From the IMG/VR virus record IMGVR_UViG_3300007512_002491: 64,000 bases of DNA; one strand, 5' to 3'. Position numbers and translations under genes: made by a program. The notes under the pieces were generated by a model. The model ran no database searches, was not told where the DNA came from, and worked only from the letters and a program-made list of their open reading frames with translations. Each line of letters begins with the position of its first letter. Within the stretch, counting starts at the first letter, position 1. This DNA is from an uncultured virus (IMG/VR IMGVR_UViG_3300007512_002491). Taxonomy: Duplodnaviria; Heunggongvirae; Uroviricota; Caudoviricetes. This document shows positions 1-42,962 of this stretch, piece by piece.

Positions 1-215
1 TGCCAACCAGAACCTTCACGAGTTTTTTCATCATAATGACACTGGTTAAAAAATACTGGATTATTAATTCCATTACGACGAAGAAAAGCTAGAGTTTCGG
101 CCTCTTCCTCAAAACTTCGACCGGTAATAATCACATCACCAGGACCAGGGCGGATTCCACAGACACTATCTCCAAGGTGAATCACTCCGTCAATATCAAA
201 ACCATTAACAACCAT
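1..215 (-). CDS. HAD-family phosphatase, 3' part runs off the window edge
   Basis: Not in the ORF track. My translation from ATG at 215 gives MVVNGFDIDGVIHLG...VIITGRS..., with HAD motif I (DxD) and motif II (T). AGGAG Shine-Dalgarno upstream. Confidence 0.7.
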   Translation of the reverse strand, partial: MVVNGFDIDGVIHLGDSVCGIRPGPGDVIITGRSFEEEAETLAFLRRNGINNPVFFNQCHYDEKTREGSGW

Positions 216-224
216 TATTTTCTC

Positions 225-941
225 CTAAACAACTTTGCGATAAAATGTGTAATCTAAAACCTTTTTCTGTCCGTACATCAAAATAGGGTGCTCTACTTTT
301 TTCCAAGTAGATTCTGGAAAAAAACGAGAAGGATATTCCGAATATGGTTTTCGAGTATTGTGAAATTCAATACCAACAACTTCTACAAAATCTGGTATCT
401 CTTTAATCGAATCTAAAATATCATACTCTTTTCCTTCGATATCAATTTTAAGAATTTCAGGCTTATATTTCTCTAATAGCCCTCCAAAAGAAAGGCCTGG
501 GACTGAAATAGTGGTTCCCGAAGCGTTTCTGCGTCGAACCGTAGAAGAAGAAACAGAATTTCTTTTAGAACTAGCATAATGAAAAACAACGCTATCAGTA
601 TCTTCTTCTGAAACTGCTGCATTTATGTTTTCAGCATTTTCAGCATTAATCTCTAGCAGTTGAAAATTATATGGGCACGGCTCTAGAGCAATAACTTGTT
701 TCGCGCCCTTTTGAAGAGCCATCCGAGCAAAACCGCCAATATTGGCACCCAGATCTAGAACAACTTTTCCGCAAGTGTCTATTTCACTATAGTTGTCTCG
801 GCACTCTCTAATAGAATTAAGATCAAAAGTGCCAGGACGATACCAAAAGTTATTACGAGGGTTTAGTTTAATAATGCATTCTTCAAAATTTCCAGCTTCA
901 GGATTAAATAATTTCCCTTTTTGCTCGTGGATTTTCGGCAT
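225..941 (-). CDS. FkbM-family SAM-dependent methyltransferase
   Basis: VLDLGANIGGF SAM motif, ALEP, LKIDIEGKE, and IEFH C-terminal motif. Confidence 0.85.
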   Translation of the reverse strand: MPKIHEQKGKLFNPEAGNFEECIIKLNPRNNFWYRPGTFDLNSIRECRDNYSEIDTCGKVVLDLGANIGGFARMALQKGAKQVIALEPCPYNFQLLEINAENAENINAAVSEEDTDSVVFHYASSKRNSVSSSTVRRRNASGTTISVPGLSFGGLLEKYKPEILKIDIEGKEYDILDSIKEIPDFVEVVGIEFHNTRKPYSEYPSRFFPESTWKKVEHPILMYGQKKVLDYTFYRKVV

Positions 942-942
942 T

Positions 943-2145
943 TTAATCTACTTCCTTGTTTCCTGCTGGGCAAGATTGATACAACTCTTCCGCACTGTAA
1001 TTTTGAGTTTGCCTCTTTGTAAATCTAGTAAGCTTTCTCTCTGAAAGAGCGTCGCATTCGTAAAGAGTTTCTGAAAACATTAATTGTTGGGGCGGGGTTT
1101 TTTGCGTAAAGGCAGATGGCCCACGCAAAGCTCCAACAATCCCCATTTCTCTCGCAACCTTTAGATATCGAGCCGCGTCGATAACAACTCCACCAGAGTT
1201 TGGAGAGTCGATTACGGAAAGTTGCGCGTCTAGAATTACTGGTGCGCCGAGGAAACCTTCCATCTCTACTCTAAAATTGGCAACCTTGTTATCTCCATAA
1301 AAACGAATATATTCTGAAGGGCCAGCATGTAAGAATGATTCTTCTGGATCAACTCCCCTGATAACATGCTGAGATCGAATTACATTTTCCTTAGAAACCT
1401 TTTTATACTTTAACCTAGATTGATCGACCATATTCAAGAAATCAGTATTTCCACCAACATTACGCTGAATATGAGCATTCACATTTAGTCCTCGGGCGAA
1501 AGCTAATTCTTGCAGCATTTGAGATAAAATAGACGCCCCAAACTGAGATTTCATATCGTCCCCAACCAAAGGAATTCCAGCATCAATAAACTTCTGTTCC
1601 CAAATTGGATTAGAAGCAATAAAGACTGGAATACAGTTAAGAAGAGAAACTCCCGTCTTTAGACACTGTTCTGCATACCACTCAGTAGCCTTCTGAGAAC
1701 CCACTGGTAGATAGTTGATTAGAATATCCACCTTTAAGTCTGTTAATATCTGAGCCACATCTACGGGCTCTAAATCAGCTGGTCTAAAAGCTTCATCGTC
1801 TGGATAAGATTTCATCAAAGACGGTACCCCATCTAACACTGGGCCCATCTGAACTATTGGACCATCGGGAACATTAGGTTCATATTCTGGAGTACAGTTT
1901 GGTTTAGCCCACATAGCTTCTCTAAAACACTTGCCGACTTTTCTTTTGTCTATATCAAACGCAGCTACAACATCGAGGTCAGCTACTGAATATCCTCCGA
2001 TTCGGCTCTTCATAACGCCGTCGCGCTCTTGGCCTTCGGTGTATCCAGCATAATATGTTAATCCTTGATAGAAAGAATTAGCGCAATTTCCGACACCGAC
2101 AATTGCAACTCGAATTGATTTATTTTTTGGCATATTTTTCTCCAT
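943..2145 (-). CDS. ino1: myo-inositol-1-phosphate synthase
   Basis: IRVAIVGVGNCA Rossmann motif, INYLPVGS, GDDMKSQFGAS, NVGGNTDFLNM, DSPNSGGVVIDA. Confidence 0.93.
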   Translation of the reverse strand: MEKNMPKNKSIRVAIVGVGNCANSFYQGLTYYAGYTEGQERDGVMKSRIGGYSVADLDVVAAFDIDKRKVGKCFREAMWAKPNCTPEYEPNVPDGPIVQMGPVLDGVPSLMKSYPDDEAFRPADLEPVDVAQILTDLKVDILINYLPVGSQKATEWYAEQCLKTGVSLLNCIPVFIASNPIWEQKFIDAGIPLVGDDMKSQFGASILSQMLQELAFARGLNVNAHIQRNVGGNTDFLNMVDQSRLKYKKVSKENVIRSQHVIRGVDPEESFLHAGPSEYIRFYGDNKVANFRVEMEGFLGAPVILDAQLSVIDSPNSGGVVIDAARYLKVAREMGIVGALRGPSAFTQKTPPQQLMFSETLYECDALSERKLTRFTKRQTQNYSAEELYQSCPAGNKEVD

Positions 2146-2147
2146 TT

Positions 2148-3206
2148 TTAGCTACTATGCAAGCTATTTAATTTATTTTCAAAAAGATCCCACCTATAAG
2201 AAACTGGGCTTAAATGAACACTTTTTGGACGCTCCATATATTCAAAATCCAACTCTTTAGAATCATTTAAAAACTCTTCGGGCCAATGGAAAGTATTCCA
2301 TTTGTTTTCTATACAAATTTTATCCACAGCGTTGTTAAATGTATTGACTAGTTTGGTTCTTTCTTCCCAAGTTCCAAAATATGGAGTCTTCTTATAGTAG
2401 CCAGTTTTTGGAAGTTTTCGAGAAATATTTTCAATTGGAAGAACGTGAACAATTTCTATGTTTGGAATGCCTAAAGATTTAAGCTGGTATCCCAATTCTA
2501 TTCCCATTGCATGGGCTTTTTCAAAAGGGTTTTCTTGTCTCATGAGGTGATGTCGAATATCAATATTACCCATATAAAACGTAAGATGAGTTAAATCTTT
2601 AGTCATCATACCCGATTTTTCTTCAATGGTTTGCTTCACTCCATTTCGTAAAGTAGAAAAAAGTGTAAGACCATCGTTTCGACAAACAGAATACCCGGGG
2701 GCATAAGTTGAGAAGCAGTGGCTGTCTCCAAAACAAAGTTTTTTCGATCTTTCTACATAGTCGATTCTACGAGTAGACTTGCAGATATCGTCTAACAAGT
2801 CTAGCTTAAGGTTTCCAACTCGACTACTAGTAGATTTATTATGAAGTCTTCCTTTGATCGTGTTTCCGATAAGGGGCATTTCATGATTTAAAATAAATGT
2901 CGGGCCTTCAAAGTCTTGAACTCTAGAAAATCTTCTAACGACATTATCATCCACTCCAAAAAAGAAATTAATGGCTCCCGAATAAGCAATTCCAGGATAA
3001 AAAATCATGGCTTCATAGCCTTCGTAAGTATCATGATTTCCCAAGACGTGAACGTCTTCCCAGCCGGCAGATTGAAGCATGTTTTTATACAAATGAACCC
3101 AAGCCGCGTTGTGACTATGTTTACGAGTTGGAATATTGCGCTCTAATCCATCAATACCGATTTTGCAACTTTTTGGTAATTCATAATCTACAAAATAATT
3201 CATCAC
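2148..3206 (-). CDS. hypothetical protein with C-terminal SGNH/GDSL-like domain (possible esterase or acyltransferase)
   Basis: FGDSH (block I-like), YMGNID (block III-like), terminal SVHLSP. N-terminal half not recognised. Confidence 0.5.
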   Translation of the reverse strand: MMNYFVDYELPKSCKIGIDGLERNIPTRKHSHNAAWVHLYKNMLQSAGWEDVHVLGNHDTYEGYEAMIFYPGIAYSGAINFFFGVDDNVVRRFSRVQDFEGPTFILNHEMPLIGNTIKGRLHNKSTSSRVGNLKLDLLDDICKSTRRIDYVERSKKLCFGDSHCFSTYAPGYSVCRNDGLTLFSTLRNGVKQTIEEKSGMMTKDLTHLTFYMGNIDIRHHLMRQENPFEKAHAMGIELGYQLKSLGIPNIEIVHVLPIENISRKLPKTGYYKKTPYFGTWEERTKLVNTFNNAVDKICIENKWNTFHWPEEFLNDSKELDFEYMERPKSVHLSPVSYRWDLFENKLNSLHSS

Positions 3207-3637
3207 TCAACTCCCGTACTTCCAAATCCGCCTTCGCCGCGCTGGGTTTGTTGTTCATAAAGATTTTCTAGTTCTACTTCTTCAATTGTGTCATAAAATA
3301 CTGGAAGTAAAACAAATTGTATAATTTTTTCTCCAGAAGAAATTTTCACTGTTTCTCTGCCAACATTGATCAAGTTAATATGGATCTCTCCTTGATAATC
3401 TTCATCAACAACGCATGCGCCGACGTGGAGATTCTTTTTTACAGCTACGCCACTCTTGTTAAATGCAATTAAAGCATGGCCTGCTGGAACATTAGCCTTT
3501 ATTCCGCTTGGCATCAAACAAGAATAACCCGGAGGTAAGCTAACAACCATTCCTTGCGGAACATAAAAATCTATGCCTGCAGATTCAGGAGTTCCTCGAG
3601 TTGGAGTTTTAACACTTCTTACTTTACTTATTTTCAT
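3203..3637 (-). CDS. dut: trimeric dUTPase
   Basis: AGIDF, NKSG, VVDEDYQGEI, RGEGGFGSTG (motifs 1, 2, 3 and 5). Confidence 0.95.
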   Translation of the reverse strand: MKISKVRSVKTPTRGTPESAGIDFYVPQGMVVSLPPGYSCLMPSGIKANVPAGHALIAFNKSGVAVKKNLHVGACVVDEDYQGEIHINLINVGRETVKISSGEKIIQFVLLPVFYDTIEEVELENLYEQQTQRGEGGFGSTGVE

Positions 3638-3905
3638 TTTTCAAACCCTTTTGAATGTAGTTATTCCACGCGCCCAGATAAGCTGCGGCATCTAAAAAAT
3701 TATCTTCTTTATAATTGTATGAGTGCCTCGAAAACTTAAGAGCTACTAAAGCAGCAAAAATATCGTCGGCAGTAAAATCTTTTCCAGTCATCCCAGAAGC
3801 AATCATTGCAGCGCGCTCTAAGCCTTCGCCCATCGGGCCATATTGTCTTTCTTTTTCTTCAGATCTTTCGTTAATAATTTTGTTAGCTTCGTCAAGAATA
3901 TTCAT
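3624..3905 (-). CDS. small all-alpha protein, DUF6378/MazG-like nucleotide pyrophosphatase candidate
   Basis: 93 aa with R..QYG, LKFSR and DNFLDAAAY pattern; lies between a TS-fold enzyme and dUTPase. Confidence 0.6.
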   Translation of the reverse strand: MNILDEANKIINERSEEKERQYGPMGEGLERAAMIASGMTGKDFTADDIFAALVALKFSRHSYNYKEDNFLDAAAYLGAWNNYIQKGLKNENK

Positions 3906-4747
3906 TGAAAGATAATCTCCCTAATCTCTTTAATCTTACTCGATATTTCGTCTTTGTCTAGGTTTTCTTCAAAAAAAGATATAAATTTTTCCATTTTTGG
4001 CCAAGTTAAATCTGGATTTAAAGTCATTTTTTCAAATGTGGGATACCCTTCTTTTCTAGCTTTCTTAAAGTAGTTTTTTGAGATTTTTTCTAGCATTTCG
4101 TAATGTCGATCATAAACATGAAAGCTTCCAGCTGAATGGTAATAATTGCCTAGCTTTAAATTAGCACCACGAGAATTTAGTTCGTTTAACATAAGCTGTT
4201 GAAACAACGCAAAAGTAAAAACGTCATTGCAAAAACCAAAAACTGCATCGTTAGATCTCATGTAAACTCCCAAGTGAAGAGCATCTCCTCTAATAAAAAA
4301 ATGAATATAATGAGTGCAGGGGTAGTCGTTAGGATTTTTCCATCGATGGTGAGGTTGGTTAATTACGCAAGTAGCTCTTCTTGTATCTCTATCGTTAAGA
4401 AGCTCGTTTACTAAATCATACCAAGCAGGCTTTATATAACTTCCATAATTTGATTCAACTAAATTATCTTCATCAGCTATTTTATTCCATATATCAGCAA
4501 ACTTCCCAATATTGCTTACTTCGCAATTGGAAGTAAGATACCAAAGCCACTCTAAAACAGCGTAATCTTCATTAAACTTGCGGGCGGGCACTTTGATCTT
4601 TAGATCTGTTGGATCTTTTATAATGAAAGAGCAAAACAATTTTTCTTTTTGCGTGAATCCTCTCGACTTAACTTCTTCACCGTTAAATTTGAGGTCTACT
4701 AATTCTTCAACAAACGCTTGATTTAAATTTATATAGTTTTCAACCAT
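3902..4747 (-). CDS. thymidylate-synthase-fold enzyme, dCMP hydroxymethylase (T4 gp42)-like
   Basis: Catalytic DYPC, then MRSNDAVFGFCND and SFHVY. Asp sits at the specificity position where ThyA has Asn. Confidence 0.8.
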   Translation of the reverse strand: MVENYINLNQAFVEELVDLKFNGEEVKSRGFTQKEKLFCSFIIKDPTDLKIKVPARKFNEDYAVLEWLWYLTSNCEVSNIGKFADIWNKIADEDNLVESNYGSYIKPAWYDLVNELLNDRDTRRATCVINQPHHRWKNPNDYPCTHYIHFFIRGDALHLGVYMRSNDAVFGFCNDVFTFALFQQLMLNELNSRGANLKLGNYYHSAGSFHVYDRHYEMLEKISKNYFKKARKEGYPTFEKMTLNPDLTWPKMEKFISFFEENLDKDEISSKIKEIREIIFQ

Positions 4748-4753
4748 AAGATT

Positions 4754-4782
4754 ATTCTACTCCGAGTTTGTGATTTTTACAA
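4754..4782 (-). promoter_or_regulatory. sigma70-like promoter, probably giving a leaderless mRNA for the modification operon
   Basis: TTGTAA-17 nt-TAGAAT, then 6 nt to ATG at 4747; no SD. Confidence 0.65.
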
Positions 4783-7700
4783 TTAAGAAAGATCATTAAA
4801 GCTAAATTTTTTGATCCTGTTCCACTTCGTAGACATTCCGAAATCATTTTTATCTACTTCTGCGATGCAAAAAGTAAAAGGATCTAAATCAGCATCTTTA
4901 GGCACTCCCCAGCAAAACATTCTATGAGATTTTCCTGTTGAAGCTATGCCGTTCAAGAGCAAATATGGCTTCTTGTTTTTTGTGAGTTTGGGGATTGCTT
5001 TTGTTAAAACAAACCAGTAAAACTCTCTACCACAATGTTCATCTAAAGAAAGAATATTTTTGTCATTCATTCTTTTTACAAATTTTTCTGGTAAAAGAGC
5101 TTCTACATTAATGGTTCCCAAAAGCTCTTGTTCAAAATTCATCATTGCGTCGAAAGACCACTCAGAAATTTCAGAGCTCTCTACAAGAATTTTAAAGAAA
5201 TTATTTTTTCCACGATAAGGATCTTTCTTAGTACGTTTTCTAAGCTCGTTAAAGTTTTCTATAACAACAGAGTGCATATGCGCATAACTCTTAAAATCTT
5301 TGTCTGGGCCGACGCACTCTAGGGAGTCAAAAGCTCTAATTTTTATCAAGGACTCTATAGCTCTCTTGTTGAATTTAGCATGCTTCCAAGTTCCATCTTC
5401 ACTCCAAAACATATCTTCAAGCGATTTGTAAGGGCGTTTTTCCAAAATTTCTTCAACCGCTGCTGCGCCCACACCTTTGCAAGACAAAAATGAGGGCATC
5501 AAAGAATTATCGTCTATGCAAGTCCAAGCTTTACCAGCTTTATTAATGTCAATTGGGACTATTTTATAGCCAAGCGCCTTTACTTCGCTTAAAGCCTTTG
5601 AAAGCTTTTTAGGATTTCCTGAACATGCTTCTAAGTAAGCTTGAATCCACTCTTGTTCAAAATAGGTCATGAACCATGCACAATGATATGAGTTCACAGC
5701 ATAAGAAACCGCGTGAGACTTATTAAATCCGTACCCAGAGAAATACAGAATCCTATCATAAAGCTCGCTAGCAATATTTTTCTCTACACCATTTTTTGAT
5801 GCGCCTTCTACAAACTTATTCTTAAGGGCGGCAGCTTTCTTTATGTTTTCATTACCAGAACCAACTGGCTTCATCATTTTTCTAAGTTTGTTACATTCAG
5901 CTTTAGGGAATCCAGCAACCACGTGGCAAAGCTCCATTACTTGCTCTTGAAAAATAATCATTCCATAAGTTGAATTAAGAACTTGTTCAATCAATGGATG
6001 ACCATAAAAAACATTTTCTGGATTGTTTTTAGCCTTAATATAAAGTTTGTCTACTTTGGCAGACAGTGGACCTGGTCGGTAAATAGAAGTCAAAGTAGCC
6101 AAATCAACTAACCCTACCGGCTTAGCTCTTTTGAAAAGCGCTTGAGCTCCTCGCTGAGTACACTGAAAAATTCCAGCCCATCTTCCAGAGTGATAAACAT
6201 TTTCATAAACTTTTTGGTCGTTGAAATCTATCACATTTGGAGCAATATGAGAATTGTACCATTCAACAATTTGCTCGAAAGAAGGATTTTCTATTCCAGA
6301 CTTTTCTAAAACAAGAGAAATAGTCCTCTCAATAATTCTAAGTGTTTCCAATCCAAGTAAATCAAATTTGATCCACCCAAATTCTTCTAGATGTTTATAG
6401 TTCATGCCTTCTACCCAAGGAGTTTGCATTTCTCCCCTAGCAACAATCAACGGCATTCTTTCTTCGATCTTTTCAGATACAATTACTCCACCAGCGTGTC
6501 GGCCGAGAGCCTTGTTTTGCTTATATAACACGTTTATAGGATCAGCAATTTGCGGGTATTTTTCTAGATAATCTCTGACTTTCGTAGAATACTTTTTAGC
6601 TTCTTCAAAACTAATATCAAAAGCTGCATCTACGCCGTCAGCTTTTCTTCCTTGGGCTACTTCTCTTTCTAATGAAGCTAAAGTTTTGTTTACTTCAGAA
6701 AACTCAATGCCGTAAAACCTAGATACATCTTTAAGAAGACTCTTGATTTTAAAAGTATTGTAATTTGAAATTGGAATTACGTTTTTATTTCCAAAATTAC
6801 TTCTAAGAATCTTGATGAGCTCATCTCTATCCGCAATATCTGTATCGATATCTGGCATTTCAGTACGCTCTGGAGACATAAAACGCTCAAACAAAAGCCC
6901 ATATTCTACAGGATCGATATCCGTAATATACAGTGCATAGTTTACTAAAGATCCCGCACCAGAGCCTCGACCTGGGCCAGCTAACATTTTTTCTCGAGCT
7001 AAATCAATAATTGCTTTCATTGTAAGAAAATACTCAGAAAAGTTTTTATCAAAAATAACTTTTAGCTCGGTTTTCATCCGCTCCACATATTCTGGCTTAT
7101 TTGCTAGCCCTCGCTTGACCAACCCCTCTTTAGAAGCTTCTAAAAGAGCTTTATTTGCTGTCACCCCTTCTGGAACGACATACGACGGAAGTTTCATTTT
7201 GCGGTCTGGGTGTATCTCGCCAATCATTTCGTGAGCTACATCGTGAGTTCTTTCGATAGCTTCAAATATTTCATCGCTATTATAAAAATCATGCTCAGCA
7301 GAAGTTTCAAGATAAGATTCCCACACCTGTTGAGCATTTTTAGGATAAAGCTCACACTTAAGATCGTCTTTAGATTTTGGAAGATTGTCTGGATTAAAGC
7401 TTTTATAATTTAGCCAGCCCAACTTTTTATAGAGTTCTCTTTCTTTCCAGTGCTCTGGAGAAGCATAATGAGAATCGCAAGTAACGACAAGTTGGTCGGT
7501 TAAAGACCGTGTTCTTGCAAATTCTAATATTGCTCTATTCACTAAGTGCTGAGCTGGAAGCTTGTTGAATTGAAGTTCTAGCATAACGTTTTCTTCGCCA
7601 ACAGCGTCTGCGAGCTGGTCATAAGAATATTCAAACTTAGAAAGAATTTTATTTCTCAAAGATTCGTCATCAAAAAGCGAAGGAATAAGATCTTCAAAGT

Positions 7701-8382
7701 TAGTTTCTTGTAGTGGTTGAAATACGTCATAAGCTAAAGGGCCGCCAATACAAGCTGTCGAAACCATTAGATGGCCTCCCTTGGCTGCCTCTTTAAGCAT
7801 CTTATAGTCCACTCTTGGAAACCTATAGAATCCTTCTGTGTACCCTCTAGAAATCAAATGAAACAACCTTTGTAGACCTTCAGACGTTTTCGGTAAAACT
7901 ACTAAATGGTGTCGACGTTTGATTGGATCGTAAAATTTTCCTGATTTCGTTTCTTCCTCGTTTTCAACAGTTAAAGAGGCACCCTCTAAACCGACATCTA
8001 AAGTTTCATCGTGTTCATCTACAAAAGCTAAAAGCGGAGTTTGAATTGCTTCTCTTTGCTTTTTTAGAATATCCAAAGCTTCTTTGTCGCCTTTTTTAGC
8101 CATTTTGTTTATTTCATAATCTAGCTTCCACACGTCTAAATCTGGGTGGACATACATTTCACAACCCGGAATAAGCTTAAAGTTGCCTCCAGCTTTATTT
8201 AATTTTTCTGTATGGAGATAAGCATGCGCAAAACCGTTCATATGACCATGATCGGTCAAAGACCAACCATCTAATCCATTTTCGCGGCAAAAGTCAATAT
8301 GCTCTTGGGGGTATCCAAGACCATCAAAAATAGAAAAACCAGAATGGGAATGCAAACCAAAAAACTTACTAGGAACCTTCAC
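4783..8382 (-). CDS. dnaE: DNA polymerase III alpha subunit (family C)
   Basis: PHP domain (LHSHSGFSIFDG, LTDHG, CDSHY), GPGRGSGAGSLV, MPDIDTD, KFDLLGL, FSGYGFNKSHAVSY. GTG start. Confidence 0.96.
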   Translation of the reverse strand: MKVPSKFFGLHSHSGFSIFDGLGYPQEHIDFCRENGLDGWSLTDHGHMNGFAHAYLHTEKLNKAGGNFKLIPGCEMYVHPDLDVWKLDYEINKMAKKGDKEALDILKKQREAIQTPLLAFVDEHDETLDVGLEGASLTVENEEETKSGKFYDPIKRRHHLVVLPKTSEGLQRLFHLISRGYTEGFYRFPRVDYKMLKEAAKGGHLMVSTACIGGPLAYDVFQPLQETNFEDLIPSLFDDESLRNKILSKFEYSYDQLADAVGEENVMLELQFNKLPAQHLVNRAILEFARTRSLTDQLVVTCDSHYASPEHWKERELYKKLGWLNYKSFNPDNLPKSKDDLKCELYPKNAQQVWESYLETSAEHDFYNSDEIFEAIERTHDVAHEMIGEIHPDRKMKLPSYVVPEGVTANKALLEASKEGLVKRGLANKPEYVERMKTELKVIFDKNFSEYFLTMKAIIDLAREKMLAGPGRGSGAGSLVNYALYITDIDPVEYGLLFERFMSPERTEMPDIDTDIADRDELIKILRSNFGNKNVIPISNYNTFKIKSLLKDVSRFYGIEFSEVNKTLASLEREVAQGRKADGVDAAFDISFEEAKKYSTKVRDYLEKYPQIADPINVLYKQNKALGRHAGGVIVSEKIEERMPLIVARGEMQTPWVEGMNYKHLEEFGWIKFDLLGLETLRIIERTISLVLEKSGIENPSFEQIVEWYNSHIAPNVIDFNDQKVYENVYHSGRWAGIFQCTQRGAQALFKRAKPVGLVDLATLTSIYRPGPLSAKVDKLYIKAKNNPENVFYGHPLIEQVLNSTYGMIIFQEQVMELCHVVAGFPKAECNKLRKMMKPVGSGNENIKKAAALKNKFVEGASKNGVEKNIASELYDRILYFSGYGFNKSHAVSYAVNSYHCAWFMTYFEQEWIQAYLEACSGNPKKLSKALSEVKALGYKIVPIDINKAGKAWTCIDDNSLMPSFLSCKGVGAAAVEEILEKRPYKSLEDMFWSEDGTWKHAKFNKRAIESLIKIRAFDSLECVGPDKDFKSYAHMHSVVIENFNELRKRTKKDPYRGKNNFFKILVESSEISEWSFDAMMNFEQELLGTINVEALLPEKFVKRMNDKNILSLDEHCGREFYWFVLTKAIPKLTKNKKPYLLLNGIASTGKSHRMFCWGVPKDADLDPFTFCIAEVDKNDFGMSTKWNRIKKFSFNDLS

Positions 8383-8384
8383 TT

Positions 8385-8434
8385 AAAAACCTCTATTGAT
8401 AATCCATTATATCAAATAACGAGAGGTTTTTCAC
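8385..8434 (-). promoter_or_regulatory. sigma70-like dnaE promoter embedded in a hairpin that covers the dnaE SD
   Basis: GTGAAA (8434-8429)-17 nt-TATAAT (8411-8406). Inverted repeat aaaaacctct 8385-8394 / agaggttttt 8422-8431, plus inner ttgata/tatcaa. Confidence 0.65.
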
Positions 8435-10903: not shown

Positions 10904-11710
10904 CTAAATTTGAATTTCTGGTACCCAGTGCGTCGTTCTTCCGTCTGGAGTTCGATATTTGATTACTTTGTTTCCGTGAGGATCAGTTTTCTGATTATAT
11001 ACTAAAAACTTCGAAGAGTAATCTCCAATTTCACCGTTAAAATTTTGATATGATTTAATTGTTGCTCCTCCGCTTTGGTAAGAAGCTCTAAGAACATTTT
11101 TTATAGAAGTGTTAAGCGAAACAAGCTTTTCATCATTTAACTCTGATACTGCGTTAGCTGGATTAATTTTAGCAAGCCAAAGAGATTCTGCTTTTACATA
11201 ATTTCCGACACCAGCTATTACGCTTTGATCCATGATAACTTTGCAAATGTTGTGCTTATTCTTTTTTCTTAAAGCTGAAATAAAAGTTGAGTCTTCTACG
11301 TCTTCTGAAAGCATGTCTGGTCCAAGAGACTGTAGTTTTTTTACTAGCTCAGATTTTCCCTTTACTAACTTAACAGTTCCAAAATTTCTAGTGTCGTTAA
11401 AATAAACTTGAGAGCCATCTAAAAAGCTAAATCTTATTCTAGAATGCTTTTGTTTTTCACCAGACCAAAATCCACTCATTCCCAACGTGTTCCAAAGAGA
11501 GTATTCTTTGAGCAAGATCCAATAAATAAATTTTCCATGCACGCCCACTCCAACGACGCCTACTGGCAATTCAGAAATTAAATCTGATAAACCGGAAGGC
11601 TCTTTCTTAGTATATCTGCCTCCTAAAATATCGATACCCACGATGGTCTTATTAGAGACTTCTCGAGCGAGAGACTCCCCAATCCTTTTACATTCTGGCC
11701 CTTCAGGCAT
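10904..11710 (-). CDS. Fpg/Nei-family DNA glycosylase/AP lyase, zincless-finger type
   Basis: N-terminal MPEGPE, HGKF, LGMSG, FNDTRNFG, H2TH DQSVIAGVGN, and C-terminal DGRTTHWVPEIQ with no Cys zinc finger. Confidence 0.92.
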   Translation of the reverse strand: MPEGPECKRIGESLAREVSNKTIVGIDILGGRYTKKEPSGLSDLISELPVGVVGVGVHGKFIYWILLKEYSLWNTLGMSGFWSGEKQKHSRIRFSFLDGSQVYFNDTRNFGTVKLVKGKSELVKKLQSLGPDMLSEDVEDSTFISALRKKNKHNICKVIMDQSVIAGVGNYVKAESLWLAKINPANAVSELNDEKLVSLNTSIKNVLRASYQSGGATIKSYQNFNGEIGDYSSKFLVYNQKTDPHGNKVIKYRTPDGRTTHWVPEIQI

Positions 11711-11718
11711 ATCTTCTC

Positions 11719-12528
11719 CTATCTTTCATATCCAAAACAATTAAAAGCCCAACTGCAAGTTTGAAAAACTTCCATCTTCGTATCTCTATTTAGATTTTGG
11801 CCTTCGCCGGGAGCACCCTTTCTTGGGCCGATATGGTTTGGATTAATTTTATTTTTATCTTGAATCTTTTTCCCAGCTTTAAAAGATAGAATTCTTTGAG
11901 CTTTAGATCTTTTTATATTTTTTTCTATCGATGTATCGTAAAGAACATTTTTGAACTCTTGATTTGTCAGTTTTTTATTTAAAAAGTCGCTCAAATATCT
12001 TATTCTTTGCTCTGGCTTATTCCAGACTTCTTCGTATTTTAAATACGTTATTTTTAAATCAGCGCGATAACCTAAGTTTTGAAACTGACTGACCTTTGTA
12101 AAGTTTTTTAAATCGCTCCAAATTTCTTTATTTTTTTCTTTAGAATACCACCCCAGCCTTTTCATAGAATGTGCTACATCATAAGGGTGCCTAACAGTTA
12201 TAATAATTTCGCTAAAATCATATAAAAGAGGGCAGCTATCCGCAAACCCGTGGGTTCTAACAACATGGCCATCGGTTAAAGAGTTTAAAATCTGCCAGGT
12301 AACAGTGTTTCCCGATCTTGGAATTCCTGCTAGCAAAGTTGTGATTTTTTTATCGCCATCGTAATATGGTAAAGCTGGGCGTATTGGAAGGGGATGAGCC
12401 TGGCAGAAACACTCAAATACATTCGGCAGATTTTTAAGATCATCGTAGCACGATCTTGTCTTTGGATTAATTACTTGGTCCCACCATAAACCTTTTCCAA
12501 GTAAGCGCTGGAATTCTTCATTCGTCAT
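11719..12528 (-). CDS. sulfotransferase-like protein
   Basis: GIPRSGNT (5'-PSB loop), VRHPYDVAHS (3'-PB), LKYEE. Start placed at MTNEE (12528) from promoter geometry. Confidence 0.7.
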   Translation of the reverse strand: MTNEEFQRLLGKGLWWDQVINPKTRSCYDDLKNLPNVFECFCQAHPLPIRPALPYYDGDKKITTLLAGIPRSGNTVTWQILNSLTDGHVVRTHGFADSCPLLYDFSEIIITVRHPYDVAHSMKRLGWYSKEKNKEIWSDLKNFTKVSQFQNLGYRADLKITYLKYEEVWNKPEQRIRYLSDFLNKKLTNQEFKNVLYDTSIEKNIKRSKAQRILSFKAGKKIQDKNKINPNHIGPRKGAPGEGQNLNRDTKMEVFQTCSWAFNCFGYER

Positions 12529-12563
12529 TATTTGATTATAACACAATCAAATAATCTTTACAT
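12527..12563 (-). promoter_or_regulatory. sigma70-like leaderless promoter overlapped by an 11-bp perfect inverted repeat
   Basis: ATGTAA-17 nt-TATAAT-6 nt-ATG. Inverted repeat attatttgatt 12527-12537 / aatcaaataat 12545-12555. Confidence 0.65.
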
Positions 12564-13372: not shown

Positions 13373-13591
13373 TCATTGTTCTCCAGATATTTCAGACCCC
13401 AAAAGCTTTACTGTTAAAATTATTTCAGCTAATTTTTTATCATAATACATCATCATGATGTCTTGTTTTATAACGGAATCCATCTCTTCTTCAGAAATTC
13501 GTATTTCTCCACCCTCACGCTTAACCAAAGCTGTAATAAGCGTGAAAAGCATTTGCTTGTCATTAAGGGTAGATCTGTCATTTTCATTCAT
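13373..13591 (-). CDS. hypothetical protein
   Basis: Start likely MNEND at 13591, overlapping the end of thyX. Confidence 0.55.
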   Translation of the reverse strand: MNENDRSTLNDKQMLFTLITALVKREGGEIRISEEEMDSVIKQDIMMMYYDKKLAEIILTVKLLGSEISGEQ

Positions 13592-14300
13592 GAGTTTTGC
13601 CCCTAGTTTCTCTGTAACAATTAATAGTAATTGGCCACAGAGTTTCAGCAATATCTAAACAAGCTTCAGCGACTTTTTGAATTTCCCACTGAGCACCATC
13701 ATGCGTTCTAAGCTCAACAAATTTAAGCAAATTATTTAGATCGACAGTACCATAGTATTCTGTGTACATGTTTTGCGGGAGTATTCCTCTGGCTTGTTCT
13801 CGGCAAACACCAGATTCAATCAATAAATTAAAAAGTTCTAGTGAAGTATTTCGAAGTCCGACTGATGCCTCCGCAGCTGTCATCTTATATTTGCCGCCGC
13901 CCAAATTTAACTCTGGATTGATTAATTCTTTTGTATTAGACGCTTGTCGATTTGATTCATGCTGAGTTCTAAAAGATTTTGGTTCATAAAATCTAATATC
14001 TACATCCGTGTATCTGCGAGAGATCTCATTATAGGACCAAGTTCTATGACGATGATGCTGAGACCTAACGTAAAGAGGAACAGTAAAACGAAACGTAACA
14101 ATATTGTGTTCCATCGTTGAGGTGTGCTTGTGTTCCATAAGGTACTTAATAAGTTTTTCATCTCTTTTATCCATTGTCATTTTTTGCTTGCCAAATGATA
14201 CGCGAGCGCTGTTGACAATAGTAAGATCGGAACCCATGTGGTCGACATAATCTACAGAGCCAATGCCGTCTCCATAAAGCTCTATTGATTTATTTTCCAT
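13584..14300 (-). CDS. thyX: flavin-dependent thymidylate synthase
   Basis: NSARVS, HTSTMEH, RHRTWSYNEISRRY (RHRx7S), REQARGILP, HDGAQWEI. Start at MENKS after a GAGG SD. Confidence 0.95.
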   Translation of the reverse strand: MENKSIELYGDGIGSVDYVDHMGSDLTIVNSARVSFGKQKMTMDKRDEKLIKYLMEHKHTSTMEHNIVTFRFTVPLYVRSQHHRHRTWSYNEISRRYTDVDIRFYEPKSFRTQHESNRQASNTKELINPELNLGGGKYKMTAAEASVGLRNTSLELFNLLIESGVCREQARGILPQNMYTEYYGTVDLNNLLKFVELRTHDGAQWEIQKVAEACLDIAETLWPITINCYRETRGKTHE

Positions 14301-14706
14301 CTTTATTTCCTCTTTCAATGGGCCGAGCGAATTTTTGGTGAATATGGGGAGGGATAGGCACAGCCTCTCCATCACCATCGATTCTAACAAAAACCATCTG
14401 ACATTTACAAACTGGTTTTTGCGTTCCGTTATAAATACTGTGTCTCCTAGCTTCTACTTCTATCGTCAAAGACGTTTTTCCAACTTTTAAAATCTTTCCA
14501 TAAATCTTAATAAGCTGGCCTGGCCTGACAGGGCTTTGAAAGTTTACTTCTGAAATATGTTTCGTAACAATTTTTCCCGTCTCTGTAAACTCAGCCGATA
14601 AAGCAGCTCCTGCTTCGTCGAGCCAAGCTAAAAGCTTACCTCCAAAAAGATTTCCATGAAATCCAACGTCGCTAGTTTTACACAGATGCGTAGAAACTAA
14701 ACTCAT
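14290..14706 (-). CDS. hotdog-fold acyl-CoA thioesterase (YciA-like)
   Basis: HGNLFGGKLLAWLDE, VGKTSL, MVFVRID. Confidence 0.88.
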   Translation of the reverse strand: MSLVSTHLCKTSDVGFHGNLFGGKLLAWLDEAGAALSAEFTETGKIVTKHISEVNFQSPVRPGQLIKIYGKILKVGKTSLTIEVEARRHSIYNGTQKPVCKCQMVFVRIDGDGEAVPIPPHIHQKFARPIERGNKDGK

Positions 14707-24651: not shown

Positions 24652-25857
24652 TCACTTTTCGGATAGGTATTCCAACGAAAGTGGAAAATTGCCCAAAGCG
24701 TCTATAAAAACATTAATATCGCTCTCAGGTTCTAATTTTTCGATCATTTCTGGAGACGCGTCAATTATTAAAGCGTCGTGAATTAAAAAGAGAGGATTAA
24801 ATTTTATATTGAAGTCTCTGAACCTCTTTATCAATTTTCTAAACCCAAGTAAAGAGACATCAACCGCTGAAGATTGAACCCAATTATTGAAAATGATAGA
24901 ATCTCGATCAGATGAAGGAATTATTTTTCTTCCAAAAAAATTAGTCATCTCAGAATCTTCTTGAAGTTCTTTTTTCTTGGTTTCTACTAAATTAGAAAAA
25001 TTCATTGCTTCTCTAACATTTTTCACCGCCTTAGAAGGAGAAATGTTTTCTGGCAATATTTTCTTTAAAGTTCTTGTACCTGCTCCGTACAGAGCGCACA
25101 GCACGAGCTTTTTAATTTGAGAGCGCTCTAAAGAATTAGCAAAATAAACTTCATTAAACATCTTGTAAACATCTTGAACAAAATCATTTTCAGCAGCATA
25201 CAAAGCCACTCTTGGCTCGAGAGATACGAAATCTAACTGAATTATCTTTCCATTTTTGTATCTAGATTTTAAAAATTTTCTAATTTCTTTGTTAGCCGTC
25301 AAAAGTTGCGGTCCAGACTGTGTTACTATCCTTCCAGTCCTTGTAGAATAATTGTTGTAAGAGACTCTTTCTAGATACCCAAAGCGATTTGTGGCAAAAG
25401 ATTTTTTAACTTTTTTGTCTATACTTTTACCCAAGCACCACCGATTAAATGAGGTTGTGTCAAACATAGCCGCTTCCATACCCTGAAGTAACTCTAGTTC
25501 TTCTTGGAACGTCTTTATATAGGAATACCCATCTAAATTTTCGTATATATCAGAAGCCCATTCTGTGATTTTTTCTAAGCGCTTTTTAAATTTTTCTGAA
25601 GGGTAAATCCACATAGTTGGAATTTCTGATGTAGACACTCCAAGTTCTTCAAAAGATTTTTTTTGAGCTTCATCAAGAAGTGAAGGTTTTTCTAGCTTAA
25701 GCAAAGAACAAAGATGATCTATAGCGTAACTCTTGTGCGGATCACCACACAAAATTAAAGAATCATTGTCAATTGACGAAACCCAAGAATAATTTTCGCC
25801 ATCATAAGCTAAATGCTTATCTTTTCCAAAATTAGATGACGCTATCAATAGTTTCAT
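24652..25857 (-). CDS. family A DNA polymerase, polymerase domain only
   Basis: TRTGRI, motif A DFVSLEPR, motif B RSQIKKLVLCALYG, NNWVQSSAVD, motif C IHDAL; about 400 aa with no exonuclease motifs. Confidence 0.85.
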   Translation of the reverse strand: MKLLIASSNFGKDKHLAYDGENYSWVSSIDNDSLILCGDPHKSYAIDHLCSLLKLEKPSLLDEAQKKSFEELGVSTSEIPTMWIYPSEKFKKRLEKITEWASDIYENLDGYSYIKTFQEELELLQGMEAAMFDTTSFNRWCLGKSIDKKVKKSFATNRFGYLERVSYNNYSTRTGRIVTQSGPQLLTANKEIRKFLKSRYKNGKIIQLDFVSLEPRVALYAAENDFVQDVYKMFNEVYFANSLERSQIKKLVLCALYGAGTRTLKKILPENISPSKAVKNVREAMNFSNLVETKKKELQEDSEMTNFFGRKIIPSSDRDSIIFNNWVQSSAVDVSLLGFRKLIKRFRDFNIKFNPLFLIHDALIIDASPEMIEKLEPESDINVFIDALGNFPLSLEYLSEK

Positions 25858-25901
25858 GATATTATAAAATAACCACGAAACCATAAATGGTTAGCTATAA
25901 A

Positions 25902-39812: not shown

Positions 39813-42800
39813 CTAAATCTCTGTCCCATTATTTGTAACAACGAAATCAAGAGATATGAACTCGACAGAGCGAGTGGGCTGCAAGAATATTTTTCCTCTA
39901 ATAGTATTATTTTCTACATCAGCCTGGGTGGTGGTTGTGGTGTCAATTAAGACCTTGAACCTATCGAGACCCTGCTGTTGCTGAATTCTTGTAAGAACAG
40001 GCGTTACTGAAGCAGAGAATCTAGCAAGAGTATCTTCTCGGTTAGGCTCAAAGAGGAAAGTATCTGCAATTTTTCTAACTTTTCTACGAATATCGATAAG
40101 AAGCCTTCTAACGTTTACTCTATCCAAAGCGCTAGCAGACCGGAGTATTGTCTTTTGACCGAATACTACGACCCCGTTAGAAGTTGGGAAGTTTGTTATT
40201 GGGTTAATATCAGCATCATAAAGTGTGTCTAAATTAGCTCGACTCAACTGGACGTGAGCCCAAAGAGTAGTAGACAGAGCGCCTCGAGTAAATCCTGCTG
40301 GAGCATACCATGGATATGCAACTGCATCGTTTAACGACATAGCTCCTAAAACTGAAACTGATGGTGGACACCTTACATTGGTTCCAGTCGCTGGATCAGT
40401 AATATAGGTGTCTGGGAAGTAAGCAGCTCCAAATGAGCTATCAAGATTTCTAGATTTAAAATTAGTAACAGTGTTATTAACACCAATTATCTCTAGAGAT
40501 CCAGTTACTACATTATTCTGAGTGTCTCTTTCTTCAATATCCATGACGTACATAGCATCGAAACGCTCTTCAGTTCTGTCTAGTGCGTGATCAGTAATTT
40601 TTGTCTCGCGGATTCCAGGAATAGCTAAGAGCATAATATCAGCATCTGATTTTTCAGACATTACATCGATAGCTTTCATGTAAGTTGCAACTGTTGGACC
40701 TTGCGCGTAGCCTTGGTTCTCATCATCCATCTCGCGGGATGCAGCAGCATTATTAAGCTTAGCTTTATCTTCATCGAAGATATTAACGCCGTCAAATCCT
40801 CCCTGCATAAACATCGTAAATTTCATGTATTTGCGAGAAGCTACATCTCCAAAGTCTTTATCGACATTTAAGAAGCGACCAGTTGAATAAGTTCCATCGC
40901 TCTTTAGAAGTGAAGAACTTAACACCCCTGATCTTCTATAGACTGAGAATGCCCACTCTTTAGAATCTACTTTGTCTTCTGAAGATTTAGTGTGAACTTG
41001 AACTCTTTCGAGCGTGAAGATATTGTTATTAAATTTATCTGAGTCTAATACGGTTCCACTAGCGTCTAAAGCTCCGGCGTTATTCCCGACTGAAACGTGT
41101 CGTTGGCCGGTGGCGAACCGAGGAAAGTATTTAGTATAAGAAGCTAATGACTCTTCCAAAACGTTACTAGCGTTAGGGCCTTTTTCATAAATCCTATCTT
41201 GCTTAGTAAACTGGACACCCCAATAATAAGAGCTATTAGCCGTTCTTTTATCTCCTGTGTTGTTTGAGATACAAAGTCTATAAGGGATAGGGGGTTCTAC
41301 CATTCTTTCGCCCCAAGTTGATTGCGCGATTACAGTTCCTTGGGCCATGACCCCACTACCGTCAGCGTCAGCAGCTGAGCCTGTAATAGTATTCATTGCA
41401 GGATAACCTGGATCTGAGAATATGTCTGAACCAGATGTAACTAAGTGATAAGGACCACGATATCCTATCGGTAAGGAAGTGACCGGAGTATTTTGAACAT
41501 CTACTTCGTTGTGCACTTCTACCCTAACGTATTTACTCATGTTTGGATGAATGCCTTCAATTACCAATTTTTGACTTGCGACCTTGTGGTCAAAATCAAA
41601 GTATTGGTGGACATTTCCAATTCTTCTTGCAATGTAATCATCAGAAGTTGGATCTAAATTAACTCCAAGGTAGGATTCTAAAACTTGTTTTTCAGCGTCG
41701 GTGTCTCCGAAAGCCCTAATTTCTACATCGAAAGTTCCATAATTTTCTTCAGTGGCACCCTTTTTAAAATTACTAATAGAAACTTTTGTTAAAGTGTTTG
41801 GATATTGGCCGTCATCTAAGCAGTGGAATCTAAACAAGTTTTTATATTTTCCACCGAATTTCTGAGATATTGCCCAAGGAGAGAAAGCTGTTCGGAACCT
41901 GTCAGAGAAGTTTTCGTAATTAGGTTTAGTAGTCGTTCCTTGGTTAACTCCATCAGAAGCTGTTAGAACGAATAAGCAGGGCTCATAGTTCGAAGCTGCA
42001 TAAGATCCGGTCCAAGCATTGACTGAAACTACTCCGGTACCAGTAACAACCGCAAGAGTTGGAGCAATATCATAATGCGTGTACATATAATATCCAGCTT
42101 GCTGTAGTTTAGTTGGATCTGTGTTGAATACATTTGTAAAATATGAAGGGCTCCAAGGAGACATAGAAGCTGTAATTGTATTTGGATAAGCCGAGGTGTT
42201 CTTGTGCCCGTTTAACAGCATTGTAAAGTTGTAGTGGTTTGCCGAGGTAAGATCTAGCTCTCCCCAACTTGCACCGCCGTCAAACGCAGAGCTTAATATT
42301 CCCTTTGTTCCTGTGGCAGAAGCTGTTACAACTCCAGCGCCCGGCCCTTTAACTAAGTTGCCAGAAAGTCCTAAAGTAACACCAGATGCAACCATTAAAA
42401 CAGCTCTTAAAATTGGAACTGCTTTTGCGCCATATCCAATCCACGAATAATTTTTGCTCTGCAAACCCGCATCGGAAAATATTGTACTTCCTGCAGATTC
42501 AGACATTAGTGCGCCAAACATATATGTTCCGCCAGCTACACCATAGTCGTAAGCATAAACGTTAGTGTTGAGGTATCCTTTATCGTTTAATTGTTTGGTC
42601 CCTACAATAAATCCTGCATTTTTTACTGCTCCAGGATAAATGTCGTAACCACCAGCATCTGTTGTTTGCGATGTAATTCTCTTTTTTCCATCGCCAACGC
42701 CGAGAACTCTTAGATAAGTACCCGCCTTTGCATTTCTCATCCATTCGTTCATAGCTAACGGTCCAAATTTCTCGCCATCGGAAGCTCCGAATGTTGCGAT

Positions 42801-42962
42801 GAAATCTTGGTAAGTAGCAACTGTCACTGGAACAAAAGCTCGACCTTGATTTGCCGTAGCGATTATTCCAGCTGGGGTACCTTGAGGGGCAACACTAGTC
42901 GGACCTGAAAGGTCAATCTCCCTTGTTGCAACTCCCGGACTTTTAAAAGTTAATTCAGCCAT
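39813..42962 (-). CDS. tail sheath protein, copy 2
   Basis: FKSPGV..REIDLS, WYAPAGFTRG, INPI, FGQKT, ALDRVNVRRLL, FEPN, EFISLDF. Confidence 0.92.
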   Translation of the reverse strand: MAELTFKSPGVATREIDLSGPTSVAPQGTPAGIIATANQGRAFVPVTVATYQDFIATFGASDGEKFGPLAMNEWMRNAKAGTYLRVLGVGDGKKRITSQTTDAGGYDIYPGAVKNAGFIVGTKQLNDKGYLNTNVYAYDYGVAGGTYMFGALMSESAGSTIFSDAGLQSKNYSWIGYGAKAVPILRAVLMVASGVTLGLSGNLVKGPGAGVVTASATGTKGILSSAFDGGASWGELDLTSANHYNFTMLLNGHKNTSAYPNTITASMSPWSPSYFTNVFNTDPTKLQQAGYYMYTHYDIAPTLAVVTGTGVVSVNAWTGSYAASNYEPCLFVLTASDGVNQGTTTKPNYENFSDRFRTAFSPWAISQKFGGKYKNLFRFHCLDDGQYPNTLTKVSISNFKKGATEENYGTFDVEIRAFGDTDAEKQVLESYLGVNLDPTSDDYIARRIGNVHQYFDFDHKVASQKLVIEGIHPNMSKYVRVEVHNEVDVQNTPVTSLPIGYRGPYHLVTSGSDIFSDPGYPAMNTITGSAADADGSGVMAQGTVIAQSTWGERMVEPPIPYRLCISNNTGDKRTANSSYYWGVQFTKQDRIYEKGPNASNVLEESLASYTKYFPRFATGQRHVSVGNNAGALDASGTVLDSDKFNNNIFTLERVQVHTKSSEDKVDSKEWAFSVYRRSGVLSSSLLKSDGTYSTGRFLNVDKDFGDVASRKYMKFTMFMQGGFDGVNIFDEDKAKLNNAAASREMDDENQGYAQGPTVATYMKAIDVMSEKSDADIMLLAIPGIRETKITDHALDRTEERFDAMYVMDIEERDTQNNVVTGSLEIIGVNNTVTNFKSRNLDSSFGAAYFPDTYITDPATGTNVRCPPSVSVLGAMSLNDAVAYPWYAPAGFTRGALSTTLWAHVQLSRANLDTLYDADINPITNFPTSNGVVVFGQKTILRSASALDRVNVRRLLIDIRRKVRKIADTFLFEPNREDTLARFSASVTPVLTRIQQQQGLDRFKVLIDTTTTTQADVENNTIRGKIFLQPTRSVEFISLDFVVTNNGTEI

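Follow-up and report, generated by a model that had tools for sequence, protein, structure and literature searches.

Phages ViI, M6, PaMx11, PhiW-14 and SP10 hypermodify thymidine by means of a dUMP hydroxymethylase, a P-loop 5-hydroxymethyl-2′-deoxyuridine (5-hmdU) DNA kinase and an amino-acid:DNA transferase (aGPT-Pplase2/ADDT/PUGT), according to the accounts in PMC8989533 and PMC11472151. The T-even phages follow another pathway, in which T4 gp42 acts before α- and β-glucosyltransferases. In RB69 and DLP3, which carry arabinosylated 5-hydroxycytosine, PMC13326640 describes a thymidylate synthase (TS) homologue clustered with sugar-supply genes, including one for a small HAD phosphatase, near DNA-level transferases. 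We analysed a gene cassette at the left end of a 64 000-nucleotide stretch of DNA (the window) from the uncultured virus of IMG/VR record IMGVR_UViG_3300007512_002491, a marine jumbo phage. The reading that we favour, and to which we give about an even chance, is that the phage makes inositol, which may become O-methylated, and attaches it to 5-hydroxymethylcytosine (hmC) once the DNA has been replicated, by a route like that of thymidine hypermodification but with different enzymes. On this reading the window would contain, at its left end, the greater part of a conserved phage cassette for putting hmC into DNA and then decorating it with a phage-made cyclitol.

Seven genes on the minus strand follow dnaE at this end of the window, with 35 nt between dnaE and the gene for a TS-fold protein. 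The coordinates bear out the tight packing described in an earlier note on this DNA, with overlaps of 4, 14 and 4 nt and gaps of 2, 1 and 9 nt along the row. Five of the seven are central here: a putative TS-fold pyrimidine hydroxymethylase of the cytosine type (281 residues; positions 3902–4747), a 352-residue protein with an SGNH/GDSL-fold domain that we call u352 (2148–3206), a myo-inositol-1-phosphate synthase homologue, Ino1 (400 residues; 943–2145), an FkbM-family S-adenosylmethionine-dependent methyltransferase (238 residues; 225–941) and the 5′ part of a small HAD phosphatase gene (1–215; open reading frame 3–215), which is cut by the window edge. The whole HAD gene (138 residues) lies at 11931–12347 of an overlapping locus, L009, from a complete phage genome (G001). 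It overlaps the gene for a 481-residue protein, P0121, outside the window at L009 12340–13785, which comprises a PF18723 core and a winged helix. The earlier note had suggested that a transferase may lie to the left of position 1, and reading the genes there gave P0121 as a candidate DNA-directed transferase.

The TS-fold protein matches PF00303 (E = 3.6e-16; 59.5 bits against a cut-off of 24.3). Its best solved relatives are the MilA CMP hydroxymethylase (2.2e-22) and the T4 dCMP hydroxymethylase (2.7e-18), compared with about 1e-5 for E. coli-type ThyA and 4.8e-11 for the best thymidylate synthase chain. At the columns of ThyA Leu143, Cys146, Asp169 and Asn177 it has Asp, Cys, Asp and Asp, the same as gp42 of phage 44RR; the true ThyA proteins of phages Cr30 and 44RR have Leu, Cys, Asp and Asn. 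According to PMC13326640, N177D together with L143D/E is the mark of hydroxymethyl-dCMP synthases and D169N that of 5-hydroxy-dCMP synthases; an acidic residue at Leu143 lets water in, and Asp at Asn177 gives a preference for cytosine. The Asn at Asp169 that marks RB69 gp48 and DLP3 gp80 is absent, the protein keeping Asp in the motif R-S-N-D, which places it with the hydroxymethyl-dCMP kind rather than the 5-hydroxy-dCMP kind. The assignment of a hydroxymethyl-dCMP signature is thus supported by the residues, and the cytosine-type Asp reported in the earlier note is the one at Asn177. We predict a dCMP hydroxymethylase that forms 5-hydroxymethyl-dCMP, with the qualification that the best solved relative, MilA, acts on CMP. 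Synthesis of dTMP is covered by ThyX (window 13584–14390).

Ino1 matches PF01658 (7.5e-22; 78 bits against a cut-off of 27) and aligns over residues 9–355, nearly its whole length, with M. tuberculosis Ino1 (1gr0; 1.4e-88). It is predicted to convert glucose-6-phosphate to an inositol phosphate. The FkbM protein matches PF05050 (1.2e-14; 55.2 bits against a cut-off of 22.7). The small HAD reaches Pfam Hydrolase_6 only at E = 0.29 and matches phrog_415, a polynucleotide kinase/phosphatase family, at 4.2e-7; nevertheless, ten homologues from distant phages keep all four HAD motifs (DxDGV, T-G-R, H-K and D-D) with little or no change (Asp7, Asp9, Gly10 and Val11; Thr31 at 90%, Gly32 and Arg33; His72 and Lys73; Asp93 and Asp94). 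The identities given to Ino1, the FkbM protein and the HAD in the earlier note, and to the dUTPase described below, are all retained.

A relative of this Ino1 was found in 500 IMG/VR stretches. The census described here covers 87 loci, in which the best 80 were combined with 23 loci of another scan; marker hidden Markov models were built from the same loci and a marker was counted when it lay no more than 10 kb from Ino1. By this measure u352 accompanies Ino1 in 70 of the 87 viral loci, u352 together with a PF18723 protein in 58, a HAD in 71 and an FkbM protein in 44; ADDT is near Ino1 in five and QueC or FolE in three. Most of the 12 u352 loci that lack PF18723 end about 1–2.4 kb after Ino1. 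Genes for Tet/JBP oxygenases, or for a PF18723 protein together with a P-loop kinase, are present in the ADDT loci as well. The predicted base goes with the kind of enzyme: the diagnostic residue of TS-like open reading frames is Asp in 26 complete and four partial sequences from u352 loci and Asn in both of those from ADDT loci. The replicase beside the cassette varies, being DnaE here, PolB in L022, L068 and L113, and PolA in L026 and L028. Nine loci carry no DNA-modification marker at all; four of these are named giant-virus metagenome-assembled genomes, four have giant-virus-like genes and one is a 5 kb fragment with only a P-loop nucleotide kinase. The giant-virus-type loci are L031, L052–L054, L056, L057, L107 and L112; TFIIB, protein kinase and GT7 are the giant-virus-like genes referred to. 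In a rough Ino1 tree, with only five cellular sequences as the outgroup, 51 sequences of the u352 class and six from giant viruses form one clade (support 1.0), at the base of which the ADDT and deazaguanine classes are interleaved. Two variations in gene content were seen: a cREC_REC (cyclic-phosphate-processing receiver) protein follows the PF18723 gene in two loci (L113 13275–13772; L075 13431–13844), and a pyridoxal phosphate-dependent PALP enzyme is inserted between u352 and Ino1 in one (L075 9017–9895). The PALP gene of G001 lies far from the cassette (L037 4313–5182).

Cultured phages show the same association in other settings. In Cr30 an ADDT gene (1.3e-52) lies two genes upstream of Ino1, and in RP13 a PF18723 protein (3e-47) is encoded about 3 kb upstream of it. 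Ino1–HAD sits between FolE and QueC, within a que/DpdA-type cluster, in Mendera and in Ps15, where the MIPS gene (myo-inositol-phosphate synthase) is ORF137; in the Ps15 paper the synthase is mentioned only as being of bacterial origin. Our searches of the literature found nothing relevant on DNA modification in Cr30. Ino1 and a small HAD therefore recur in DNA-base-modification clusters of unrelated phages. The co-occurrence of ino1 with gp42-like genes that the earlier note offered as a check does not hold as a tie, since Mendera has no TS-fold gene and Cr30 has only a true ThyA.

P0121 matches PF18723, the helical domain of 5-hmdU DNA kinase, at 3.4e-7 (30.4 bits against a cut-off of 25), and most of the 120 listed homologues carry the same domain. 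The predicted model (mean predicted local distance difference test score, pLDDT, 86.6) ends in a winged helix of 70 residues (Z about 10). For the core (residues 23–379) the best VIA-align matches are PaMx11 gp46, a 5-PmdU glycinyltransferase (8z2m; Z = 9.3 over 231 aligned residues), and Qng1, an enzyme of queuine salvage (7ugk; Z = 9.2), which are the relatives predicted by its Pfam assignment. Foldseek on the whole model returned nothing for the helical core (best E = 0.55), so that the PUGT and Qng1 matches come from VIA-align only, and a sequence search of the PDB returned nothing (best E = 0.29). Glu345, Ile346, Cys349 and Gln350 are invariant in 26 family sequences (E345-x3-C349-Q350). 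PMC11472151 assigns PUGT catalysis to Glu243, Thr244 and Cys247, with the Cys attacking C6 of the pyrimidine. The ADDT proteins found in these loci have an invariant E-S-x-x-C, and the sole segment aligned by hhalign between the P0121 and ADDT families pairs E345...C349-Q350 with E258...C262-Q263 of ADDT, an alignment that is not significant (E = 0.55). The E...C[QE] motif occurs in six of eight PF18723 proteins checked and is absent from two that have a separate ADDT gene. Taken from these motifs, P0121 may itself be the DNA transferase. No conserved Walker A motif can be read in its sequence, and no match to the P-loop 5-hmdU kinase (PF18748), to ADDT (PF18724 in G001) or to the TET-associated glycosyltransferase TAGT was found in the complete genome G001 or in 44RR.

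The predicted structure of u352 (pLDDT 90.9) confirms the SGNH-like protein of the earlier note: residues ∼150–352 adopt an SGNH/GDSL fold, preceded by an N-terminal α/β part (∼1–150). The best match is to 2hsj (VIA Z = 12.9, 177 residues aligned), with Z from 12.9 to 9.1 across 50 listed SGNH entries; Foldseek comparisons with SGNH structures gave E of 3e-4 to 6e-3 (prob 1.0). Among the matches are sialate O-acetylesterases and peptidoglycan O-acetyltransferases. The family invariants are Gly160, Asp161, Ser162, His163 (the GDSH motif), Gly179, Asn214 and His331, with Gly213 at 90% or more. These residues may correspond to SGNH blocks I, II, III and V (GDS, G, GxN and His), but no Asp could be made out three positions ahead of the His. 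By sequence, u352 matches no Pfam family even at E = 10 and two phage families of unknown function. The N-terminal ∼150 residues gave no fold match, the match list being filled by the SGNH domain and the protein atlas returning no usable hit. We predict that u352 is the catalytic partner of P0121; a complex prediction for u352 with P0121 residues 1–380, run without controls, scored 0.00 in both runs.

Fusions in other phages connect these proteins directly. ORF233c of Aeromonas phage 44RR2.8t (795 residues) consists of a u352-like half and a P0121-like half (42% identity, 8e-103), P0187 joins the same two parts in the opposite order, and P0199 joins an FkbM domain (35% identity to the cassette FkbM, 3e-29) to a P0121-like domain. 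Because they are fused to P0121-like domains, u352 and FkbM most probably share the site of action of P0121, namely the DNA. The 44RR protein and its relatives in phages 31, 25, Aes508 and others are the closest cultured counterpart of the enzyme pair, and these phages also encode gp42. Unlike the cassette, the ORF233c locus lacks Ino1, HAD and FkbM; in the place of Ino1, a vSGLT-like Na+/solute symporter adjoins the fused pair, and it might, though it need not, supply a substrate of that kind.

In the mechanism that we propose, the TS-fold enzyme, which bears the family signature, would make 5-hydroxymethyl-dCMP for incorporation at replication. Ino1, judged by its family, would turn glucose-6-phosphate into inositol phosphate, from which the small HAD would take off the phosphate either before or after attachment. 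P0121 would bind DNA and attack C6 of hydroxymethylcytosine as PUGT does with 5-phosphomethyl-2′-deoxyuridine, and an inositol hydroxyl would then add to the exocyclic methylene to give an ether, in parallel to the addition of serine by ViI gp247. The latter enzyme makes O-serinyl-thymidine, a precedent for a hydroxyl nucleophile, according to PMC8989533. The role of u352 is the weakest step: it would convert the hydroxymethyl into a leaving group, for example by esterification, and so replace the missing P-loop kinase. FkbM would O-methylate the attached group on DNA, as its fusion to a P0121-like domain suggests.

This scheme shares with thymidine hypermodification a TS-family hydroxymethylase that supplies a 5-hydroxymethylpyrimidine. 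A PF18723/aGPT-Pplase-type protein (the aGPT-Pplases were reportedly named by Iyer et al. in 2013) is likewise encoded beside tailoring genes, the E-x3-C motif of the cassette resembles the catalytic Glu/Cys of PUGT, and other phages hold Ino1–HAD inside bona fide kinase/ADDT clusters. It differs in that the cassette is of the cytosine type (Asp rather than Asn), the whole phage genome lacks a P-loop kinase and a PF18724 protein, the fused partner is an SGNH-fold protein and the small molecule would be a cyclitol rather than an amino acid or polyamine. The earlier note had drawn its analogy to the T-even pathway, with a pyrophosphatase and sugar transfer. The gp42 active-site signature is indeed shared, but the chemistry appears nearer to thymidine hypermodification: the cassette has no glycosyl- or nucleotidyltransferase, no T4-type glucosyltransferase turned up in the Pfam scans, no dCTPase or dNMP kinase was recognised, and the linkage would be an ether to a carbocycle rather than a glycosidic bond. 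The RB69/DLP3 system resembles the cassette in the gene grouping described above, whereas, in the account of PMC13326640, its TS homologues are D169N and make 5-hydroxy-dCMP, and its nucleotidyltransferase and GT4 arabinosyltransferases have no counterpart in this cassette. The attachment of inositol to DNA, which the earlier note proposed, we infer from gene linkage only.

A broader proposal is held more tentatively, somewhat short of an even chance. It is that phages make a family of bases with ether-linked inositol, here O-methylated and on hmC, elsewhere on 5-hydroxymethyluracil and perhaps on 7-deazaguanine derivatives, and that u352 and P0121 together constitute a new route for derivatising hmC in DNA that needs neither a kinase nor a glycosyltransferase.

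Several observations weigh against inositol attachment. Everything beyond the family assignments derives from gene linkage, and given the clustering of counter-defence genes in phages, adjacency by itself could be misleading. The census loci are those most similar to this Ino1 and, because many are fragments of related phages, are not independent events; they were counted without a base rate from control genes. The profile alignment of P0121 with ADDT falls short of significance, as noted, and the Z of 9.3 for the P0121 core is a borderline value where helical proteins are compared. SGNH enzymes act as esterases or acyltransferases, and a donor for the activating group is not evident. A u352 homologue is present in 43 cultured phage records, mostly of Aeromonas T4-like phages, and in none of the 19 Ino1 records; in 44RR, the one record examined, it is fused to the P0121-like domain without Ino1. 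The Aeromonas phages carry the pair without Ino1, and the pair therefore needs no phage-made inositol. Among the best 80 of more than 560 viral u352 loci, Ino1 lies within 6 kb in only 21, namely every locus at least 48% identical to this u352 together with L140, a partial match at 51%. The other 59 (L127–L186; 38–43% identity) have no cassette genes within that distance, neither Ino1, HAD and PF18723 nor a TS-like gene, and all five long records from this distant clade, of which one is complete, lack Ino1 as well as the P0121 family. Ino1 also occurs in giant-virus-like contigs without DNA-modification neighbours, and in its 66 longer forms the added parts are inteins or lipid-pathway domains, in no case a DNA-modification domain.

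In an explanation that we consider unlikely, u352 and P0121 modify hmC with another group (an acyl ester or a host metabolite) and Ino1–HAD serve a separate purpose, draining glucose-6-phosphate or making a small molecule that blunts host defence, with the adjacency due to counter-defence clustering. The fused pair without Ino1 in Aeromonas phages, the acyl-transfer chemistry of SGNH domains and the lack of Ino1 fusions to DNA-modification domains all speak for it. However, 58 of the 87 loci have Ino1 and HAD placed between u352 and P0121, and the Ino1–HAD pair is found inside two other kinds of base-modification cluster, a precision of insertion that would be unexpected for an unrelated module; a sugar/polyol-type transporter also stands in the place of Ino1 beside the fused pair in 44RR. 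A different question is which cyclitol is made. The second-best solved relative of Ino1 is the Ari2-type (aristeromycin) five-membered-cyclitol-phosphate synthase (6k96; 5.8e-48), and the homologue might produce a five-membered carbocycle like the Ari2 product, or an inosose-derived ring, to be attached or used. The match to M. tuberculosis Ino1 is far stronger, and longer cellular relatives are fused to phosphatidylinositol-type enzymes, which makes this very improbable. Least probable in our judgement is that Ino1, FkbM and HAD contribute to a glycan or lipid, in the virion or in the infected cell, and not to DNA. Methylation of sugars is common among FkbM enzymes, fusions to lipid enzymes occur in cellular relatives of Ino1 and this phage has a glycan island of about 30 kb (with NeuB, GT2, GT4, GT9, GT29 and a carbamoyltransferase), but that island is more than 100 kb from Ino1 in the complete genome, in agreement with the separation of ino1 from virion-glycan genes on which the earlier proposal depended, and Ino1 is inside a glycan cluster in none of the 78 phage-type loci with DNA-modification markers. 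A join of Ino1 to a NeuB/glycosyltransferase cluster through the ends of a circular contig was also considered and is ruled out, because the record is an internal fragment of the complete genome, in which the two ends are 127 kb apart.

Our searches of the literature, which gave only papers with inositol in the name of MshA, found no description of an inositol-bearing DNA base, in agreement with the earlier note. If inositol attachment is correct, this would be the first cyclitol-modified nucleic acid, a carbocyclic sugar alcohol being a new chemical class of DNA modification, and with this enzyme pair the thymidine kinase/transferase pathway would for the first time have a counterpart for cytosine. 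An inositol ether of hm-dC, at about 419.4 Da, would have the same mass as glucosyl-hm-dC and hence be easily missed by mass spectrometry; having no glycosidic bond, it should not be removed by glycosidases, and it might go unrecognised by defence systems against glucosylated DNA. Phages escape restriction enzymes and CRISPR mainly through hypermodified bases, which are also drawn upon for enzymes used in DNA labelling and sequencing chemistry. The module can be tested in culture, Ino1–HAD in Cr30, RP13 and the Menderaviruses and the fused pair in Aeromonas phages 44RR, 31 and 25.

Two further genes of the row encode a dUTPase (144 residues; 3203–3637, minus strand; PF00692 2.5e-25, phrog_135 5.4e-40) and a DUF6378 protein (93 residues; 3624–3905, minus strand; PF19905 2.7e-11). 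The latter had been described as DUF6378/MazG-like; the family name stands, and the MazG likeness was not confirmed: the PDB gave no match that could be used (best E = 0.23), nor was any similarity found to the Cr30 dATP/dGTP diphosphohydrolase. The DUF6378 gene travels with the TS-like gene in L022, L068 and L075, and a role as a dNTP pyrophosphatase is only a guess. The upstream neighbour, outside the cassette proper, is the DnaE-type replicative polymerase (1199 residues; 4783–8382, minus strand; PF07733 4.3e-58, PF17657, PF02811 and PF14579), whose position is kept in close relatives.

The promoter placed at 4754–4782 in the earlier note (TTGTAA-17-TAGAAT, read from 4782 to 4754) matches the consensus at nine of 12 positions, but such sites are no commoner than chance, with 20 in 9.6 kb compared with 25.1 ± 5.4 in shuffled sequence, and a better one lies upstream of dnaE (8434–8406); the promoter is not confirmed. 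The operon survives in part: the row of genes does continue past position 1, as L009 shows, whereas a delimited seven-gene unit does not follow, since 94 of the 96 open reading frames of the 127 kb record are on one strand. Beyond P0121 are genes for a C5 DNA methyltransferase, an NAD epimerase, a thymidine kinase, a cupin-like protein, a DHH phosphoesterase and a dCMP deaminase. The C5 cytosine methyltransferase (PF00145, 3.1e-19) directly follows P0121 (L009 13785–14963) and is kept in close relatives; its presence there would be odd if a hydroxymethyl derivative fully replaced cytosine. Also downstream of the cassette, a 146-residue protein matches the PHROG family `cysteine dioxygenase' (6.8e-15). 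Cr30 has a gene likewise annotated as cysteine dioxygenase about 3.5 kb upstream of Ino1; compared by tblastn, the two (L009 16527–16967 and L006 5031–5480) showed no direct similarity at E = 1e-5.

The window is the second half of a 127 284 bp record, which corresponds to positions 102 764–230 047 of the complete 293 409 bp genome with terminal repeats; L009 differs from the window record by six mismatches in 12 145 nt. The phage occurs in marine, seawater or vent metagenomes (nine runs among the matches listed), and no cultured phage gave a megablast match to window 1–8400. It encodes a T4-like portal, a prohead protease and two gp23-like capsid proteins, as well as chaperonins, DnaK/DnaJ and a sigma factor. 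The gp23-like major capsid paralogues are adjacent on the minus strand (629 and 632 residues; window 49898–51787 and 51881–53779), as are two tail-sheath paralogues of about 1050 residues each (39813–42962 and 43004–46168). The glycan island (G001 ∼82–113 kb; L041 10049–19321, L042 1311–13021 and L001 1–10582) lies ahead of the structural genes and looks like a set for nonulosonic-acid glycan synthesis by the phage. It contains four GT2, three GT4, a GT9 and a GT29 sialyltransferase gene, NeuB, PseB/PseC-like enzymes, two formyltransferases, a cytidylyltransferase, a PfkB kinase, a carbamoyltransferase, a UDP-glucose dehydrogenase and several epimerases. Two sulfotransferase-family genes are present, one at window 11719–12546 (minus strand), about 7 kb from the cassette, and the other at L037 9890–10615. 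An Fpg DNA glycosylase (window 10904–11710) is kept in relatives. A 410-residue protein with a partial family A DNA polymerase domain (window 24652–25884, minus strand) is encoded by this phage in addition to DnaE, and a PT-HINT domain is present in a 1110-residue protein (L003 7237–10569). A DUF444–SpoVR–PrkA trio (L040 10556–14992, G001 ∼64.5–69 kb; Pfam 6e-110, 9e-123 and 5e-137), a stress- or sporulation-linked three-gene set of bacteria, is here carried by a phage.

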